A DNA stretch of 48,256 bases from a virus (IMGVR_UViG_3300027833_000012:1-48256), one strand, 5' to 3'. Shown: positions 1,824 through 42,451, numbered from the stretch's first letter. Notes: generated from the sequence alone by a model not told the origin. A program made the numbers and translations.

Positions 1824-3476
1824 TTAATAGTTATTTTTATCTTTATTTGGGGCATATTTCTCTAATAACTCCAATCTTTTATTAAGAACCTTCTCACTAG
1901 CTGGGTAAAAATTATCACCTCTATTTAAACTCTTAGGCATAAGACTCATTTGCTTATTCTTTCTATCCCTTATTGTTAAGAAGTCATCGTCTTGACCTTC
2001 ACCGAATGGTTTATAAATGTTAGTACCATCAAAGAATGAAACCATAGCATCTTCACCATCTTCATAATCAAAAACAATTGTTGTTTTATTCTTAATAGCT
2101 TCTTCAGAACGTAACAATTTAAATGGTCCTGGTAATGTTGTTTTACCTAAAGTTTCTGAAAATTTAACAACACCAACATCTTCTGAACCCATAGCACATA
2201 AGGCATACTTACCTGATAAGTTATCTCTCTTAAGGTTGTTTCTTCCTCCACCACCTTGTCCGAATAATCCCCAAGCATATGGTGCGTAACCCTTTTCAAT
2301 CATGGCCATCATAATGTCCCACATGTTTTGGTGTGTCATACCATCACCCTCTATAAATCTAAGGGTTGTACCAAAATACCATGTCTTACCATTAATTACT
2401 TCACTAGTACAAAGCCCATTCTTTATAGCTAATTCTATTGTCCAAATAACCTGTTCCAATGCATCCCCAGAATCTGGTCTTGCCACTACAATTTTACCGT
2501 TATTTAACTCAACACTTTTTTGTGCTAAAGGAAGTAACATATTTTCTACAGCATAAAAGTAATCGTTACAGTCGGCTACCATAGAAATAAAAGAATTATC
2601 AGTACAAGAATTGTATATAGCTTGGTAACAGTCATTTTCAAATTCAAAACCTTGTACGTTTCTATGTGCTAAAGCATTTACTGAATTACCAACTGGGGTT
2701 TCACCAGAATTTTTCCAAGCTTGGTATGCACCAGAGCATGTGTCAGTTCCAGGGAATGTGTATAATTGTGCCTTACCCATTATTTCAGATTCTCTAGCAC
2801 AAATACCAGCTCTATCACCAAAGTCAGTTAACATAATTGAGGCTAGGAAAGTTGTTTCCTCATCACTTAAATTTGGATTAACCATGTTAACCATACTTTT
2901 TAATTTAAGTAACCAGTGCTCATTTTGAGTTATCTTTTCTGATACCGCCCAAGTTTGTAATAATTTAGATTCAAACCAAGCTGCTAATATACCCATTCCA
3001 TCAACATCACAAACTATTTGCATGTAAGGTTCATTTGGATACACAACAGAACCTTCTGGTAATGCTTTAATCTTAATTGGTGGACGACCATTAAATTCAT
3101 CTACCACTCTTCTCCATATATTTTCTGGGAATTCATACTCAGATAAGCCATTTGGACCTACTTTAAAGGTGGATAAGAATCTTTTGGTATCATCAATCTC
3201 TTGGTGAGTAATCGGCTCATAGAACAGTTCTTCTAGGATATCACCTAGACCACCAAAAATGATTCTATTATCACCCTCAGTGTAAATTGCAGAATCGATT
3301 GTGATTAATTGTTTTCTAAATACACAGTAATATGTTGACTTATTTTTAACTAATTCACTCTCAAATTTATTTGAACCAACTGTATATGCATCAGCAGTTA
3401 ACAATCTAGGTGTCTTATAAATTTTCTTATTAGGTAAAATAACTTCTCTTTTGATTTCCTTTACTTCTATACTCAT
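1824..3476 (-). CDS. nadV: nicotinamide phosphoribosyltransferase (NAMPT/NadV)
   Basis: LLTADAY, DFGDRAG, AHRNVQ, ARPDSGD, GQGGGG and LKRD motifs; adjacent to NMNAT-Nudix. Confidence 0.88.
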   Translation of the reverse strand: MSIEVKEIKREVILPNKKIYKTPRLLTADAYTVGSNKFESELVKNKSTYYCVFRKQLITIDSAIYTEGDNRIIFGGLGDILEELFYEPITHQEIDDTKRFLSTFKVGPNGLSEYEFPENIWRRVVDEFNGRPPIKIKALPEGSVVYPNEPYMQIVCDVDGMGILAAWFESKLLQTWAVSEKITQNEHWLLKLKSMVNMVNPNLSDEETTFLASIMLTDFGDRAGICARESEIMGKAQLYTFPGTDTCSGAYQAWKNSGETPVGNSVNALAHRNVQGFEFENDCYQAIYNSCTDNSFISMVADCNDYFYAVENMLLPLAQKSVELNNGKIVVARPDSGDALEQVIWTIELAIKNGLCTSEVINGKTWYFGTTLRFIEGDGMTHQNMWDIMMAMIEKGYAPYAWGLFGQGGGGRNNLKRDNLSGKYALCAMGSEDVGVVKFSETLGKTTLPGPFKLLRSEEAIKNKTTIVFDYEDGEDAMVSFFDGTNIYKPFGEGQDDDFLTIRDRKNKQMSLMPKSLNRGDNFYPASEKVLNKRLELLEKYAPNKDKNNY

Positions 3477-18661: not shown

Positions 18662-18717
18662 ATCTTTATGTTTTAATTACAAATATACAAATTAATTATC
18701 ATAATTACAAATTATTG

Positions 18718-18786
18718 AGCGAGAAATGGGACTCGAACCCACAACCTTCTGATTGGCCAGACGCTCTACCATTGAGCTATTCTCGC
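18718..18786 (-). pseudogene. tRNA-Gly(GCC)-like gene with a 3-nt deletion in the anticodon arm
   Basis: Near copy of 18973..19044, but the arm reads TCTG-GCCAA-TCAGA instead of TCTGG-TTNCCAA-TCAGA. Confidence 0.6.
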
Positions 18787-19094: not shown

Positions 19095-19730
19095 TCACTC
19101 CTTTTTCATTTTTCGACCCAATCTCCAGCCTTCTGGAATTAAATCGCCTTTATTTATTTTCTTACTTTCAACTTCATTGGTAATCCAACACTTACCGAAT
19201 TGAGAATTATTTGACCCAACATTTTTAGACTTCCTCATCTTCTTTTTAGTTTCCTCACTATGTAATTTACCTTTAAATGTTGCTAATCTACCTTTTAAAG
19301 CTTTTTTAACTTTTTCTTTATATTTTGGGTCTTTATGCAAATTTTTAGTTATTTCACTTTTAATTTTCCTACCTTCATCACTTTTCCAAAATATATTACC
19401 AGCTTCAGAACATTTTTTCTGATGTTCTTCATCCCTAAAACCACCTTGACCACCTACTCTTAGATTCATACAGTCAACCTTTGCAATCTCGTTAAGATTA
19501 ACTATTTCTTCTTCTCTAGATTTTAAAATTTCTCTAGTTTCACAATACTCAAGTATTTCACTAATGAAATTATCTTTTCCATGTTTTCTAATAGCTAATT
19601 TAATTCTATTTCCACTACCTAAATAACCATCATCTAAGTTATCTGTACTATGCATCCCTATATAATATTTACCACTTAATACGTTTGTGGTTTTATATAT
19701 GAAGTGATACTTTTTTTCTTTTCTTGCCAT
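19095..19730 (-). mobile_element. free-standing Seg-like GIY-YIG homing endonuclease with NUMOD3-like motif, inserted in the tRNA array
   Basis: FIYKTTN...YYIGMH...YLGSG...AIRKHGKDNF..EILE; HSEETKKKMRKSK...NSQFG. Confidence 0.88.
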
Positions 19731-20030: not shown

Positions 20031-20036
20031 GTATTG

Positions 20037-20124
20037 TCCGAGAGGTGGGACTCGAACCCACGGTGGAGTCATTAACTCGTCTGGTTAAAAGCCAGGACCG
20101 TTCGCCAACTACGGATACTCTCGG
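20037..20124 (-). tRNA. tRNA-Lys(TTT) with long variable arm
   Basis: CTGG-CTTTTAA-CCAG arm followed by a GAGT-TAATG-ACTC variable hairpin; 88 nt. Confidence 0.78.
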
Positions 20125-20695: not shown

Positions 20696-20704
20696 AATTA
20701 TTTG

Positions 20705-20800
20705 TCGGGGGTATGGGATTCGAACCCATGGCAAATACGAACAGCGTACCCGCACTGGTTTCCAAGACCAGCCACTTCAACCTTACTCGTGCAACCCCCG
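20705..20800 (-). tRNA. tRNA-Pro(TGG) with long variable arm
   Basis: CTGGT-CTTGGAA-ACCAG arm, C1-G72/A73, ~25-nt variable hairpin GCGGGTACG...CGTATTTGC. Confidence 0.7.
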
Positions 20801-20890
20801 ATAATTACACTTCCACGTCATTGGTATAGTGCGAACCCAATTGTTATTTTATTATTCCAATATGTCAATGAACTACTTATTATTAAACGC

Positions 20891-20926
20891 AAAAAACCCA
20901 GTTAAAATTTTTATCTTAACTGGGCT
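20891..20926 (-). terminator. attenuator terminator of tRNA operon 1
   Basis: GCCCAGTTAA...TTAACTGGGT plus T-run; leader segment GACTGGGT (20998-21005) can pair with its 5' arm. Confidence 0.85.
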
Positions 20927-20958
20927 TCTTTATCGTATTTTTTTTTGGTTTAAATGAA

Positions 20959-21066
20959 TTAACCAATTAATTCATCACTTCCTTTTTTATACAACTCACC
21001 CAGTCTGCTCGGCTTTTGGCCTTGCGGATACTGTTTCCCTTGATATGTCGTTGTATAATTTTTCAT
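20959..21066 (-). CDS. leader peptide 1, MKNYTTTYQGKQYPQGQKPSRLGELYKKGSDELIG (35 aa)
   Basis: Lies between promoter 21112 and terminator 20891; codons 2-19 are 17/18 K/Y/T/Q/G/P, the tRNA species found downstream. Confidence 0.85.
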   Translation of the reverse strand: MKNYTTTYQGKQYPQGQKPSRLGELYKKGSDELIG

Positions 21067-21111
21067 CTTAATTTTTCTTTATGGGTTTATACCCTTTGTT
21101 AATATATATGA

Positions 21112-21119
21112 CAAAGATA
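21112..21119 (-). promoter_or_regulatory. TATCTTTG promoter of tRNA operon 1, with upstream TTGACAAA
   Basis: About 60 nt near-identical to the promoter at 35699. Confidence 0.82.
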
Positions 21120-21206
21120 CTAAAAGTTATCTAATTTGTCAAGTTTTTTTTAATTTATTTTTTAATTTATTTATAATTCACTGACTATCAGTTTATTATA
21201 TCTTTG

Positions 21207-30847: not shown

Positions 30848-31540
30848 TTAATCTCTAATATTATCCCACTTACGTAATAAAACACTTGGACTAAAGGCTT
30901 CTTCGCTATTAAGATTTTCAACTAATAATTTTGCAACTTTTTCGTATAATTGATGATATTTCTTTTCATAATCTAATACCTCTATATATTTTGAATCTAC
31001 ATAATCAGTTAACCAAACACCATTTTTTGATTTATAGAATTTACAACCATCTTCAATCATTTTAGTAGTATTAACCTCAAGTATGATAGGTTTACCTCTA
31101 CGACTACCAACATTTTTAGCTGTACCAATATCACTACTTAAATGTACATGTTGTCTATTCATCTTTTTTAATCCCATGGATTTTATATCCTTTAGATATT
31201 TTTCTACTGTACCATGGTATAAAATACTTGGTGGTACAAGTTCTTCCATATCTAAATCAACATTAATGGAATGACCTTGATTGGCTCTAATTGCTGATTT
31301 ATTGTTATTAAATGTAAATCTTTTTTTATCGTTTGATTCTACAATTTCTATTAATTCATCGTATAGTAGGGTTATACCCTTAATTTCATAAATGTTAATT
31401 AATAACTCATCTACATTCACCCAACCTTTATCATCCATTTTTAAATTAAGTATGTGGGGTTTATGTCTAAGTACTAGACTTAATAATTTACTAATTTTTT
31501 TCATAATATTATTTTTATTATTCATATTACAAATATACAT
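30848..31540 (-). CDS. kptA: RNA 2'-phosphotransferase (Tpt1/KptA); true start probably downstream of promoter 31530
   Basis: SKLLSLVLRH, NDKKRF, IRANQGHS, LYHGT, RQHVHLS, NGVWLT. Confidence 0.93.
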   Translation of the reverse strand: MYICNMNNKNNIMKKISKLLSLVLRHKPHILNLKMDDKGWVNVDELLINIYEIKGITLLYDELIEIVESNDKKRFTFNNNKSAIRANQGHSINVDLDMEELVPPSILYHGTVEKYLKDIKSMGLKKMNRQHVHLSSDIGTAKNVGSRRGKPIILEVNTTKMIEDGCKFYKSKNGVWLTDYVDSKYIEVLDYEKKYHQLYEKVAKLLVENLNSEEAFSPSVLLRKWDNIRD

Positions 31541-31578
31541 AAAAAAAATAAGACTAACAAATAAATGTTAATCTTATT
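31541..31578 (-). terminator. terminator closing tRNA operon 2
   Basis: AATAAGATTAACA...TGTTAGTCTTATT plus T-run. Confidence 0.75.
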
Positions 31579-31583
31579 TCTAG

Positions 31584-31655
31584 CCGTCCATCTCAGAATC
31601 GAACTGAGAGCAACCGAGAGACAGTCGGTCATGTTAGCCATTACACCAATGGACG
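31584..31655 (-). tRNA. tRNA-Asp(GTC)
   Basis: ACCGA-CTGTCTC-TCGGT arm, G73. Confidence 0.88.
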
Positions 31656-31660
31656 GAATA

Positions 31661-31731
31661 GGAATATTGTAGGATTCGAACCTACGACTGCGGCTCTTTG
31701 GCCACCGTGCTAACCTCTACACTAAATATTC
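31661..31731 (-). tRNA. tRNA-like gene, undetermined (6-nt loop CAAAGA)
   Basis: Intact acceptor, D and T arms; GTGGC/GCCGC stem. Confidence 0.5.
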
Positions 31732-31828
31732 TAACTATCTACAAATGACTGCCATCATCCTTCAATAGAACAGCCTTGATACTTCATTTCAGTTGGCAGA
31801 CTTACTCAAATTTATCTCACTGTTTTTG

Positions 31829-31901
31829 TGGAGCTACTCGGAATCGAACCGAGGACTGGGATTTGCAAAACCCCTATTTTAGCCAATTAAACTATAACCC
31901 C
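31829..31901 (-). tRNA. tRNA-Ala(TGC)
   Basis: Loop TTTGCAA, G3:U70. Confidence 0.9.
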
Positions 31902-32043
31902 ATTTTTGTTAGATTTCGTACCGTTATCACACTTCAGTACAAGTCGCTATCAATTTATCTAACACACTTCCAATGCTACCTATCTAGGTTATTTAAACAC
32001 CTTTGCGTCCCTAGCGGTATTGTGTGACACCGTTTCTTTATTG

Positions 32044-32116
32044 TATTCCAGAAGGGAATCGAACCCTCATTTTGCGATAGAAAGTCGCACGTCCTAAGCC
32101 ATTAGACGACTGGAAC
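32044..32116 (-). tRNA. tRNA-Glu(TTC)
   Basis: TGCGA-CTTTCTA-TCGCA arm. Confidence 0.88.
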
Positions 32117-32209
32117 ATTTGTAATTCTTCCTTTACTTATATTAACACTCCGATTGAACTTAATCTATCCCAGGCGTTACTTCCTGGCTCGTCTGGTATT
32201 AATATCTAG

Positions 32210-32283
32210 CGGATGTCACGGGGGTCGAACCCGCAATCTTCTGAGTGACAGTCAGATATGTTACCAATCAACACCTCACATCC
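32210..32283 (-). tRNA. tRNA-Asp(GTC)
   Basis: TCTGA-CTGTCAC-TCAGA arm, G73. Confidence 0.88.
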
Positions 32284-32354
32284 GTTTTATAGTCTTTCCT
32301 AACAGTCATACTCAATACATTGGCTGGTTGTAAATCAGCTATACAATGCGTTTG

Positions 32355-32428
32355 TAACCCTAGTGGGAGTCGAACCCACGACCTTATCCTTGAAAGGGAT
32401 ACGACTTTTCCTATTCGTCCATAGGGTC
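32355..32428 (-). tRNA. tRNA-Glu(TTC)
   Basis: TATCC-CTTTCAA-GGATA arm. Confidence 0.88.
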
Positions 32429-32553
32429 ATATAATAATAGGTGGAAAGAGTTTTATTTTGCTCTTATTACATGCACGACTTTGTGCAAAACTCACAAATA
32501 CCGATGAATTTAATCATTATCACTTAAAGCGTTTCGATATCTATTATTTATTG

Positions 32554-32629
32554 CCGTCCTAGAGGGGTTCGAACCCTCGTTTTTGAGCAGAGACAGTGCA
32601 AATCCCCTTCCAATGGGGCTCATAAGACG
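32554..32629 (-). tRNA. tRNA-Asp(GTC), weak anticodon stem
   Basis: GCA-CTGTCTC-TGC arm, G73. Confidence 0.75.
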
Positions 32630-32633
32630 TTAG

Positions 32634-32706
32634 TGAGGGCAACTGGTATCGAACCAGTATCTTTCGGGCTTCAACCGAACGCATAGACCATCTTTGCTAT
32701 ACCCCC
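32634..32706 (-). tRNA. tRNA-Phe(GAA)
   Basis: TTCGG-TTGAAGC-CCGAA arm, A73. Confidence 0.88.
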
Positions 32707-32719
32707 TTGTTTGTTATGT

Positions 32720-32727
32720 CAAAGATA
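32720..32727 (-). promoter_or_regulatory. internal TATCTTTG promoter-like site just upstream of tRNA-Phe
   Basis: TAnnTTTG match 14 nt before the tRNA. Confidence 0.55.
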
Positions 32728-32763
32728 CAAAAAATAAATTTAACTACCAAACTTTTTTTTTAA

Positions 32764-33081
32764 TTAATAACCATTTTCTTTTTTCCATTGGTCATGCATA
32801 AAAACCACTTTACCATATGCTGAACCTTTACCTTCAGTAATGTTTATGAAACCATTTTCTTCAGTTATTACTGATTCTTCTGGTCTAACTGAACCTCTAT
32901 ACTTCTTCCCATAACTACCAGTTAGTTCTTTTGTGGCTGGGTCAATATCACCCCAAGTACTATGACCATTACCTATCCATTCTATATAGTATTTCTTTCC
33001 AGTTTCTGGGAAATACATTATTTCTCTTCCAGTTTCATCTCTATTAACTAAGAAATCTTTAATCACATTTTTCATAACCAT
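32764..33081 (-). CDS. hypothetical protein, first gene after attenuator 2
   Basis: 105-aa ORF (WGDIDPATKELTGSYGKKYRGSV). Confidence 0.75.
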   Translation of the reverse strand: MVMKNVIKDFLVNRDETGREIMYFPETGKKYYIEWIGNGHSTWGDIDPATKELTGSYGKKYRGSVRPEESVITEENGFINITEGKGSAYGKVVFMHDQWKKENGY

Positions 33082-33094
33082 TTAAATTTAAAGC

Positions 33095-33124
33095 AAAAAA
33101 AAACTCGAATCTTTCGAATCGAGC
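33095..33124 (-). terminator. attenuator terminator of tRNA operon 2
   Basis: GCTCGATTC-GAAA-GATTCGAGT plus T9; leader segment GGTCGAGT (33165-33172) can pair with its 5' arm. Confidence 0.8.
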
Positions 33125-33149
33125 TTGTTATTTAGTTTAGTTGTTACAC

Positions 33150-33242
33150 TTAACTTTTGACACTACTCGACCTCCCCAGGCTAAAATCAGCCTCGGCATT
33201 TGCTTCAAACGCAAAATCAAATATGTAGTTAAATGTATTCAT
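33150..33242 (-). CDS. leader peptide 2, MNTFNYIFDFAFEANAEADFSLGRSSSVKS (30 aa)
   Basis: Lies between promoter 33303 and terminator 33095; codons 4-20 are 13/17 F/D/A/E, the tRNA species found downstream. Confidence 0.85.
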   Translation of the reverse strand: MNTFNYIFDFAFEANAEADFSLGRSSSVKS

Positions 33243-33302
33243 CTTTTTTATTTTTATAATTTTAATCAGAAGTATCTTTTACCTCTTTATTTTAAATATA
33301 CA

Positions 33303-33310
33303 CAAATATA
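33303..33310 (-). promoter_or_regulatory. TATATTTG promoter of tRNA operon 2
   Basis: -7 box with upstream TTGCAC. Confidence 0.78.
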
Positions 33311-33339
33311 CTAAAAGTTTATTTATTGTGCAAGTTTTT

Positions 33340-35501: not shown

Positions 35502-35535
35502 AAAAAAAAGTCCGATACTTTTATGTATCGGACTT
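35502..35535 (-). terminator. attenuator terminator of tRNA operon 3
   Basis: AAGTCCGATAC...GTATCGGACTT plus T8 abutting tRNA-Cys; leader segment CTATCGGGTT (35579-35588) can pair with its 5' arm. Confidence 0.88.
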
Positions 35536-35564
35536 ACTATATTATTTAAATGAAATCAACTCAC

Positions 35565-35648
35565 TCAATTAACAGCATAACCCGATAGGTCTACTAAGAC
35601 TAGTAAACATAAACAAAGGACTGATAATATGTTGTTAATTATATTCAT
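35565..35648 (-). CDS. leader peptide 3, MNIINNILSVLCLCLLVLVDLSGYAVN (27 aa)
   Basis: Lies between promoter 35699 and terminator 35502; codons 8-21 are 12/14 L/V/C, the tRNA species found downstream. Confidence 0.88.
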   Translation of the reverse strand: MNIINNILSVLCLCLLVLVDLSGYAVN

Positions 35649-35698
35649 TTTTAATTTAAATTTTGTGGCACTTTTTGTACCGTTATTAATATATATGA

Positions 35699-35706
35699 CA
35701 AAGATA
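35699..35706 (-). promoter_or_regulatory. TATCTTTG promoter of tRNA operon 3
   Basis: Near-identical context to the promoter at 21112. Confidence 0.82.
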
Positions 35707-35747
35707 CTAAAAGTTATTCAATTTGTCAAGTTTTTTTTTAATTTATT

Positions 35748-41161: not shown

Positions 41162-42451
41162 TTAATTCTGTATTTCGATTAAGTATGCAATTGTACACTG
41201 CTTACCGTTATATATTATAAATTCATCATTTCTTAAATCAACACCACCATGTGCATATACACTATCATAACCTTCATTATCCATAACCTTTTTAGATAAC
41301 TTATAACAAGAACTATCATGAGTCTTAATGTGTTTTTGGTTACCAACATGTACATCAAATAAAGCTAAATAACCCTTATTCGAACCACCATTAGTCCAAT
41401 AAGAACCCCTAAGTGAACTATAACCTATCGATTTTTGAGCCTTATTAGCAAAATAAATACCATCACCAAACATACTACCAGTATGTATAGCACCAGAAGG
41501 TCTAATCATAAGTCCAGTTTGTATGATATTAAACCAATTTTCATTCCTGGAACCATGCCAGTAAAGTCTATTCTTTTTAACTCTAGCTTTATTAAAGTTT
41601 TCATCAAAATCAGCTTGAGTTCTTTCATTGATACACTTAAATATTTTCTTAGCTTGTTTTTTATTCTTACCTAATAACTTATATATTAATTTAAGTCTTT
41701 CTTCATCTTCCTCCACAGAAACTTTAAGACCCATTTGTTCAAGTAGTGTTATTTCATCACCCTTATCTTCACCAATCTTGGTGTTAACACTATCTCTTTG
41801 TTGTTTAAGTAATCTTACTTGACCAGCCATAGTATCAAGAGTATCTTGTTCATTAGATAAAAAATCATTTACCTTATCAAGATTATTTTTAACATCAGAA
41901 GTGTTAATTAAATAATCTCTAACATCTTTCATTTCTCTTGGTATTATACTGTATAAGCTAATTAATAATTCATTAAGTTTATTAACATCCATACCTATCT
42001 TAACTGATTTAACAGCATCATTAAGTATGTCTTGAGCCGAATCAATTTGTTTTTGTGTTACGGTATCTTGTGTAACCTTATAATTCTTCTGTATTGCTTT
42101 ATTTGCAAAACTCATTAATTCATCAAAAAGGTTTCTAACCTTAACACAACTAATATCAGCAGTTTTACTTTTATTAGTACCTGTATTATCAGTAATCTTT
42201 TCAGATACCATGTCGGTAACATCTTTATAACCCTTACTATTACTAGTCTTATTCTTATAAATTTTATTCCACTCGTATGATTGTTTATAAACAGTAGTTA
42301 ATCTCTTACCAACTCTACCATATTCACACTTTATCTTACCATCACTTTGTTCTTCCATGATGTAAACCTTATTAGATTGACCCGTCTTACCGTTATCAAC
42401 CGAAACGTGAATAAGCTTTGCAAATTTTAAACCGTTTTCTTTAACTATCAT
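41162..42451 (-). CDS. poly(ADP-ribose) polymerase-like protein (WGR domain, helical domain, catalytic ART domain)
   Basis: EYGRVG WGR-like motif; YSIIP helical domain; WHGS...MFGDGIYFA..KSIGYS...NDEFIIY with H-Y-E triad. Confidence 0.9.
   Translation of the reverse strand: MIVKENGLKFAKLIHVSVDNGKTGQSNKVYIMEEQSDGKIKCEYGRVGKRLTTVYKQSYEWNKIYKNKTSNSKGYKDVTDMVSEKITDNTGTNKSKTADISCVKVRNLFDELMSFANKAIQKNYKVTQDTVTQKQIDSAQDILNDAVKSVKIGMDVNKLNELLISLYSIIPREMKDVRDYLINTSDVKNNLDKVNDFLSNEQDTLDTMAGQVRLLKQQRDSVNTKIGEDKGDEITLLEQMGLKVSVEEDEERLKLIYKLLGKNKKQAKKIFKCINERTQADFDENFNKARVKKNRLYWHGSRNENWFNIIQTGLMIRPSGAIHTGSMFGDGIYFANKAQKSIGYSSLRGSYWTNGGSNKGYLALFDVHVGNQKHIKTHDSSCYKLSKKVMDNEGYDSVYAHGGVDLRNDEFIIYNGKQCTIAYLIEIQN

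Follow-up and report, generated by a model that had tools for sequence, protein, structure and literature searches.

A likely leader-peptide attenuator ahead of a Phe/Asp/Glu/Ala tRNA array in a large uncultured marine phage

A tRNA array in a large phage genome is preceded by a short open reading frame (ORF) and an intrinsic terminator, and the ORF is crowded with codons for the amino acids that the downstream tRNAs serve. This arrangement raises the question of whether translation of the ORF governs transcription of the tRNA genes. An initial annotation of the locus, generated by a model from the sequence alone, had read it as an attenuator. The present analysis supports that reading, and all of its sequence-level predictions that could be tested were met. 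We consider the locus likely (probability about 0.75) to be a ribosome-mediated, or leader-peptide, transcription attenuator that senses the decoding speed of Phe, Asp, Ala and Glu codons and gates read-through into a 105-aa ORF and the tRNA array. This function is inferred from sequence, and no expression data support it.

Genome setting and anatomy of the unit

The window, by which we mean the whole stretch of 48,256 nucleotides that was analysed, represents the opening 48 kb of an IMG/VR virus record of 187 kb (IMGVR_UViG_3300027833_000012) with a CheckV completeness of 53%, and its source is described as a large uncultured marine phage. The genome has a G+C content of approximately 29% and all of its genes lie on the minus strand, as do all features described below. 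A motif of the form TTG-N19-21-TAnnTTTG precedes genes, with 59 occurrences on the coding strand vs 7 on the other, and Shine-Dalgarno-like 4-mers are rarer than expected upstream of ORFs (4 of 154 vs about 12 expected). Promoters with such a -33/-7 layout, together with this style of initiation, are of the Bacteroidota type, and the host is inferred to be probably a marine member of that phylum because both features match it. Across the genome ARAGORN called 39 tRNAs, which are grouped in four clusters. RNA-repair genes are also present, for example Tpt1/KptA immediately after the Phe/Asp/Glu/Ala array. As a side observation, this Tpt1/KptA RNA 2'-phosphotransferase (30848-31540, directly after the array; Pfam E = 2e-52) shares the window with a PARP-catalytic-domain protein and a NAPRTase-like protein (coordinates given for this group: 30848-31540, 41162-42451 and 1824-3476), and the three genes might point to NAD and RNA repair as a theme of the region around the tRNA island.

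The promoter of the unit (33303..33333) fits the genome motif and consists of a TTG at 33333..33331, a 20-nt spacer and TATATTTG at 33310..33303, with an A tract before it; the same A-tract form heads the three sister units described below and other RNA genes. Just past the likely transcript start a small 5' stem-loop, AGAGGU / ACUUCU, is predicted at 33268..33286. Stem-loops of 4-6 bp, differing in sequence, lie some 15-25 nt past the -7 box in each of the four units and of the relatives examined. Within the window they lie at approximately 33268-33286, 35665-35685 and 21090-21110, and it is their structure that is conserved, not their sequence.

The leader ORF (33150..33242) comprises 30 codons from an ATG at 33242 to a TAA at 33152..33150 and begins about 55 nt downstream of the -7 box. 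No Shine-Dalgarno sequence precedes it, and its upstream region is A-rich, like those of other genes of the phage. Codons 4-20 (33183..33233) form the sensing run, which contains TTT five times, GAT twice and GAA, GAG, GCG, GCA, GCC and GCT once each, together with AAC, TAC, ATA and AAT. Thus Phe (5), Ala (4, each Ala codon once), Asp (2) and Glu (2) account for 13 of its 17 codons. Both the leader peptide and this count had been given in the initial annotation, and both held, the peptide exactly as quoted. Over positions 2-20, 13 of 19 residues fall in the F/D/E/A set vs a background of 22.5%, calculated from the residues of 154 coding-strand ORFs of at least 100 aa (binomial P = 3e-5). Among the 632 ATG ORFs of 20-45 aa found on both strands of the whole genome, the leader is the top scorer for this set, with 13 vs 6 for the next best. 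These composition statistics are shown. The leader also has three Asn codons and one codon each for Thr, Tyr and Ile, for which the array offers no matching tRNA. An overlapping ORF in an alternative frame (33199..33137) was considered and rejected, its ATG being missing in relatives without the Asn-15 codon.

Between the leader ORF and the downstream genes lies an intrinsic terminator (33095..33125), composed of a hairpin at 33125..33102 and a 9-T tract reaching 33095. The hairpin starts 24 nt past the leader stop, has a GAAA loop and one U-U mismatch, and has an estimated stability of about -9.8 kcal/mol; the terminator of this phage is the weakest of the family. The 5' strand of the antiterminator, GGTCGAGT, spans codons 24-27 of the leader (33165..33172) and pairs with the 5' arm of the terminator. 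The duplex of GGUCGAGU (33172..33165) with that arm was calculated at -10.4 kcal/mol, a value equalled by only 0.7% of random genome windows (P = 0.007). The initial annotation had claimed that a segment following the sensing run can pair with the terminator 5' arm; this held, and covariation in relatives was found in addition. Only about 8 pairs, including three G-U, make up this antiterminator, a long-range helix that encloses about 45 nt. A further hairpin, within the ORF and immediately preceding the antiterminator segment, is predicted at 33177..33194 (GAGGCU, a loop of 4-6 nt, AGCCU(G)). Its variable pair is G-C, G-U or A-U in the distinct ORFs of relatives, never A-C, and it could possibly serve as a pause or protector hairpin.

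The tRNA array itself (31583..32706) was called by ARAGORN and Rfam as Phe, Glu, Asp, Glu, Ala, undetermined and Asp, at 32706..32633 (Phe, GAA), 32428..32354 (Glu, TTC), 32283..32209 (Asp, GTC), 32116..32043 (Glu, TTC), 31901..31828 (Ala, TGC), 31731..31661 (undetermined, with a 6-nt anticodon loop) and 31655..31583 (Asp, GTC). The order given in the initial annotation (Phe, Asp, Glu, Asp, Glu, Ala, undetermined, Asp) held except for its first Asp, which neither program called. The region concerned, at about 32629..32552, is nevertheless tRNA-like and has the Asp anticodon loop CUGUCUC, as in the Asp tRNA at 31655. An AU-rich hairpin followed by T9 (31541..31578) closes the array and overlaps the promoter of the Tpt1/KptA gene. 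Unusual tRNAs were observed at 31661-31731, 18717-18786, 32552-32629, 20704-20800 and 20036-20124. Two of them have 6-nt anticodon loops and anticodons that ARAGORN could not assign, and one Pro (97 nt) and one Lys (89 nt) tRNA are over-long beside copies of normal length. Most isoacceptors are present as pairs.

The attenuator had been placed ahead of the tRNAs, which held only in part: a 105-aa ORF (32764..33081) not mentioned in that proposal is the first gene after the terminator and separates it from tRNA-Phe. This ORF has 88 homologues, and those with fetched neighbourhoods lie in or beside phage tRNA arrays. It belongs to no Pfam or PHROG family; its structure model (pLDDT 79) matched no PDB fold, and the only AlphaFold DB match was an unnamed homologue. 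A caveat that a promoter-like site at 32720 could give basal, leader-independent expression was borne out as to the site. A second promoter, TTG-N20-TATCTTTG (32720..32750), fits the genome motif and ends 13 nt upstream of tRNA-Phe. Because this good promoter sits just before tRNA-Phe, the array should be transcribable in this phage without passing the attenuator, and the attenuator may here only add to a basal level, a function again inferred from sequence. No promoter motif was found between the terminator and the first tRNAs in the close relatives examined (L014, L012/L034 and L011), and the bypass promoter looks lineage-specific.

Sister units, relatives and covariation

Four cassettes of the same build occur in the genome, two of the sisters lying inside the window and one outside it. 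Unit A (20891..21142) has a promoter, a 35-codon leader (21066..20959) rich in K, Y, T, Q, G and P, and a terminator; 17 of 19 leader residues belong to the set of its own array (P = 2e-7), which carries tRNAs for Pro (two), Gln (two), Tyr, Lys (two), Thr, Tyr, Gly, Thr and Gly. Unit B is the Phe/Asp/Glu/Ala unit described above (leader 33242..33150; F, D, A and E; 13 of 19). Unit C (35502..35729) likewise combines a promoter, a 27-codon leader for Leu, Val and Cys (35648..35565; 11 of 19, P = 3e-5) and a terminator, followed by tRNAs Cys, Leu, Val, Val, Leu and Leu. Unit D lies outside the window at G000:C1:70044-69813 and has a leader of R, I, N, H, S and W (69964..69869; 17 of 19, P = 5e-8) and a terminator, with small ORFs and then tRNAs His, Trp, Ser, Ser, Asn, Asn, Ile and three Arg downstream. 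When the four leaders were compared with the four arrays, the true assignment was the best of the 24 permutations (58 vs 37 for the best other), and none of the off-diagonal comparisons was significant, including those of the F/D/A/E leader with the amino-acid sets of the other three arrays. The A-tract promoters and 5' regions of units A, C and D are nearly identical.

Several further elements were noted around these units. A 14-nt motif, TTCATTGACATATT, occurs at 20872 of the window and at G000:C1:69253, shortly upstream of tRNA-Pro in unit A and tRNA-Trp in unit D, and is conceivably an internal promoter or a processing signal. Within array A, between tRNA-Tyr and tRNA-Gly, lies a 211-aa ORF (19095-19730) that may conceivably be a homing-endonuclease-like insertion. 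Tandem A-tract promoters (22754 and 22669) head about 1.3 kb (22754-21360) of 35% G+C in which no ORF exceeds 26 aa; two Met tRNAs lie at its end. No Rfam family except tRNA reached threshold in this stretch, which might hold structured RNAs or odd tRNA-like genes.

Relatives of the leader were retrieved with a degenerate pattern derived from its conserved part, from TARA and other aquatic samples, with some contigs reaching up to 360 kb. A total of 40 loci (8 from IMG/VR and 32 from metagenomes) carried homologous leaders, representing 26 distinct ORF-plus-terminator versions. The genomic contexts of homologues of the 105-aa ORF also yielded F/D/A/E leaders with terminators and with Phe, Asp, Glu and Ala tRNAs. 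No close cultured relative emerged when 50,697 phage records were searched with 5 kb of sequence (megablast) and with the leader (blastn). A search with the Tpt1 gene revealed no related loci in IMG/VR and, in cultured phages, only distant unrelated genomes (Erwinia, Clostridioides and others).

The conservation seen in these relatives is shown. The leader ORF is intact, with ATG and stop, in the 26 distinct relatives, and in an alignment of five sequences the indels within the leader keep or restore the frame. A hairpin and T tract persist in the relatives, where the hairpin takes about 20 different sequences. In 35 of the 36 loci that retain DNA past the leader and terminator site, tRNAs for Phe, Asp, Glu or Ala, occasionally with Val, come next; the sole exception (L053) has no recognisable terminator, and a tRNA-Ala directly follows its ORF. 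The first tRNA lies about 10 nt past the T tract in most relatives. The 105-aa ORF, by comparison, changes array between phages: in a 369-kb relative (L021-L023) it lies in a Cys/Val/Leu array and the F/D/A/E leader abuts tRNA-Phe. From this relative and the spacing of about 10 nt, it follows that the leader belongs to the tRNAs and that the 105-aa gene is a movable passenger. In L010 and L024/L025 the 105-aa ORF lies in a tRNA island without a recognisable leader, so the leader is not universal with the ORF. Leader mini-ORFs are mostly left uncalled in annotation; among the fetched contigs, gene lists show one only on L016/L017.

At leader columns not fixed by the search pattern, residues are swapped mostly within the set (E/D, F/N/A, A/D/E/N, F/I, F/E/I and A/V). 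The F/E and A/D/E swaps, although chemically radical, call on the same set of tRNAs. Invariance of the AEADFSLG block is a product of the search pattern; L021, which was recovered independently of that pattern, has AEADESLG. Other kinds of leader also occur in relatives: a K/P/Y/D/A/G/C leader in distant relatives precedes Tyr, Gly, Pro, Asp, Ala, Cys and Lys tRNAs (15 of 19 residues, P = 9e-5), and several L/V/C leaders precede Cys, Val and Leu arrays.

Covariation between the antiterminator segment and the terminator arm is likewise shown. GGAUGAG(A/U) occurs with (U/A)CUCAUCC and GGUCGAG with CUCGAC; further pairs that change together are GGUCGAA with UUCGAC, GGGAGAG with CUCUCCC, and GGAUGG with CCAUCC. 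Because the variable terminators misalign, cognate and non-cognate duplexes were compared in place of pair counts from a MAFFT alignment. Cognate duplexes averaged -11.6 vs -8.1 kcal/mol for non-cognate ones, and none of 20,000 permutations reached the observed value. The test was not corrected for shared ancestry; at least seven helix types are present. The amino acids encoded by the antiterminator segment vary (RSS, RMR, ESS, WSS and RMD), and a constraint at the RNA level is indicated, residues 26-28 being free to change as the terminator arm changes.

Antiterminator formation was also modelled by folding, with each transcript cut at the middle of the terminator loop, which represents the state before the 3' arm exists. 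Across the four units the terminator 5' arm pairs in this model with a segment at codons 21-27 of the leader, and the antiterminator duplexes were more stable than 99.2%, 99.3%, 95.9% and 99.6% of random genome windows in units A, B, C and D, respectively. A ribosome modelled with its A site at codons 8-16 leaves the pairing intact, but one placed at the stop codon abolishes it; in the three sisters a ribosome at codon 20 already does so. When the 26 variants were examined with modelled footprints, the pairing probability was about 0.3-0.8 for a ribosome at codons 10-16, and in 24 of the variants it did not exceed 0.16 for one at the stop. The geometry is thus predicted to behave as in classical attenuation, in which a stalled ribosome spares the antiterminator and a ribosome at the stop covers it. 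With no ribosome modelled, the early coding region sequesters the segment in the Phe/Asp/Glu/Ala unit alone, a situation predicted to promote termination and resembling the trp leader. The three sisters depart from the trp leader here, in that their antiterminator forms in the model without any ribosome. This ribosome-footprint geometry rests on a thermodynamic model only.

Proposed mechanism and rival explanations

In the proposed mechanism, the promoter at 33333..33303 would supply transcription whose passage beyond 33125..33095 would be set by the leader. RNA polymerase would start near 33295, and a ribosome would load on the A-rich, Shine-Dalgarno-free leader. When cognate charged tRNAs are plentiful, the ribosome would reach codons 22-30 or the stop and cover GGUCGAGU, the terminator hairpin would form and transcription would end. 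When any cognate tRNA is scarce, the ribosome would linger within codons 4 to about 17 and leave GGUCGAGU free to pair with the emerging terminator 5' arm, so that no terminator would form and the tRNA genes would be transcribed. Since the products are the very tRNAs being tested, this would constitute negative feedback on tRNA supply. Translation of the leader, coupling of transcription and translation, the response to tRNA levels and the biological trigger are all inferred. Loss of host tRNAs during infection, for example through anticodon nucleases, is a plausible trigger by inference, because the genome carries a tRNA repair kit.

One rival explanation holds that the small ORF, equipped with a promoter and terminator of its own, makes a functional peptide, that the tRNAs are transcribed from their own promoter or promoters, and that the likeness in composition has some other cause. 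The high conservation of the AEADFSLG block, the separate promoter before tRNA-Phe in this phage and the completeness of the promoter-ORF-terminator cassette speak for it. However, the search pattern itself required that block, which at the RNA level also folds into a hairpin, the four peptides of this genome are unrelated and yet each mirrors its own array, radical swaps at variable positions stay inside the tRNA set, residues 26-28 vary in step with the terminator arm, and the relatives examined have no promoter motif between terminator and tRNAs; we regard this explanation as improbable. Similarly unconvincing is the proposal that the leader, though translated and matched to the tRNAs, acts not on termination but on RNase processing, precursor stability or protection from Rho, the hairpin being a leaky constitutive terminator. 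The weak terminator of this phage, the formation of the antiterminator without a ribosome in the model of three sister units, and the presence of a conserved 5' stem-loop of unknown role would fit it, but the antiterminator segment covaries specifically with the terminator 5' arm and is placed where a terminating ribosome covers it, which is the signature of a termination switch.

A T-box-like, tRNA-binding riboswitch, in which leader triplets pair with anticodons without translation, is consistent with the complementarity of these triplets to the anticodons of the downstream tRNAs. It is very hard to sustain, however, given that no T-box or other Rfam family matches, that indels leave the ORF open with its ATG and stop, either preserving the frame or restoring it, and that the cognate triplets all lie in one frame. 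Finally, an AT-rich intergenic ORF might by chance be rich in F/D/A/E beside an ordinary terminator, and short ORFs are indeed common at 29% G+C (632 ATG ORFs of 20-45 aa). Chance is all but excluded by the rank of the leader as first of these 632 by a wide margin (P = 3e-5), by the three further units that match their own arrays, and by the joint conservation of ORF, terminator and tRNA set in 26 distinct relatives.

The preferred reading thus remains ribosome-mediated attenuation, and a bolder form of it also appears likely to us: phage tRNA blocks would be autoregulated by decoding speed through modular leaders that list their own amino acids, this being the first such case and one widespread in large aquatic phages. 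The phage would in this way top up just those tRNAs that ribosomes find scarce, for example after loss of host tRNAs or cleavage by defence nucleases. If this is true, phages do not simply carry tRNAs to match codon usage; each set would be metered by ribosome speed. This would bear on why and when large phages use near-complete tRNA sets, with host shut-off, tRNA degradation and anticodon-nuclease defences as possible occasions. Such compact modular elements, with a different amino-acid set in each cassette, could also serve as in-cell sensors of the availability of specific tRNAs.

Comparison with known systems

No report of leader-peptide attenuation of tRNA genes, or of such attenuation in a virus, was found in the full-text literature searched, where the published cases concerned amino-acid and synthetase genes, and the sole jumbo-phage paper that matched the search mentions attenuators only in passing. 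An attenuator-like leader of E. coli pheU/pheV (tRNA-Phe) was considered and dropped as a precedent, since the upstream region of pheV in K-12 shows no such ORF. In Rfam searches for leader families, only tRNAs passed in the window; Trp_leader (RF00513) reached 17 bits vs a gathering score of 41 (E = 0.57). T-box (RF00230) gave no match even at E up to 10. T-box riboswitches resemble the present unit in that the state of tRNA is sensed and a terminator and antiterminator are switched ahead of translation-related genes. They differ in that no translation is involved: uncharged tRNA is bound directly by a specifier codon together with the T-box sequence, whereas here a reading frame is conserved.

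Genes for aminoacyl-tRNA synthetases can also be under leader-peptide attenuation. The E. coli pheST operon has a Phe-rich leader, pheM, and a His-codon leader lies upstream of hisS paralogues in bacilli (PMC2965389). The present unit resembles these leaders in its proposed action on a part of the translation machinery that serves the sensed amino acid. The pheST and hisS leaders, by contrast, target the charging enzyme, sense a single amino acid and are cellular rather than viral.

The general mechanism of leader-peptide attenuation has been described (PMC1183508). Multivalent examples include the ilvGMEDA leader (Ile/Leu/Val) and the thr leader (Thr/Ile), and trpL, hisL, pheL and leuL each sense a single amino acid. 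Like these attenuators of enterobacterial amino-acid operons, the Phe/Asp/Glu/Ala unit has a short leader ORF with dense regulatory codons for several amino acids and an intrinsic terminator opposed by a mutually exclusive antiterminator, and a stall within the run would lead to the antiterminator and a ribosome at the stop to termination. It does not meet the classical scope of genes for amino-acid biosynthesis, transport or synthetases, as a 105-aa ORF of unknown function and tRNAs lie downstream. It differs further in lacking sequence similarity to them, in its location in a phage, in its likely Bacteroidota-type setting without Shine-Dalgarno sequences, and in its long-range antiterminator helix, which encloses about 45 nt. 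The targets are tRNA genes and a small ORF instead of biosynthetic enzymes, and the sensed molecule is the product itself. The mechanism proposed is therefore a textbook one, and what is new lies in its putative target, tRNA genes, in its setting in a virus, and in the identity of the sensed molecule with the product.
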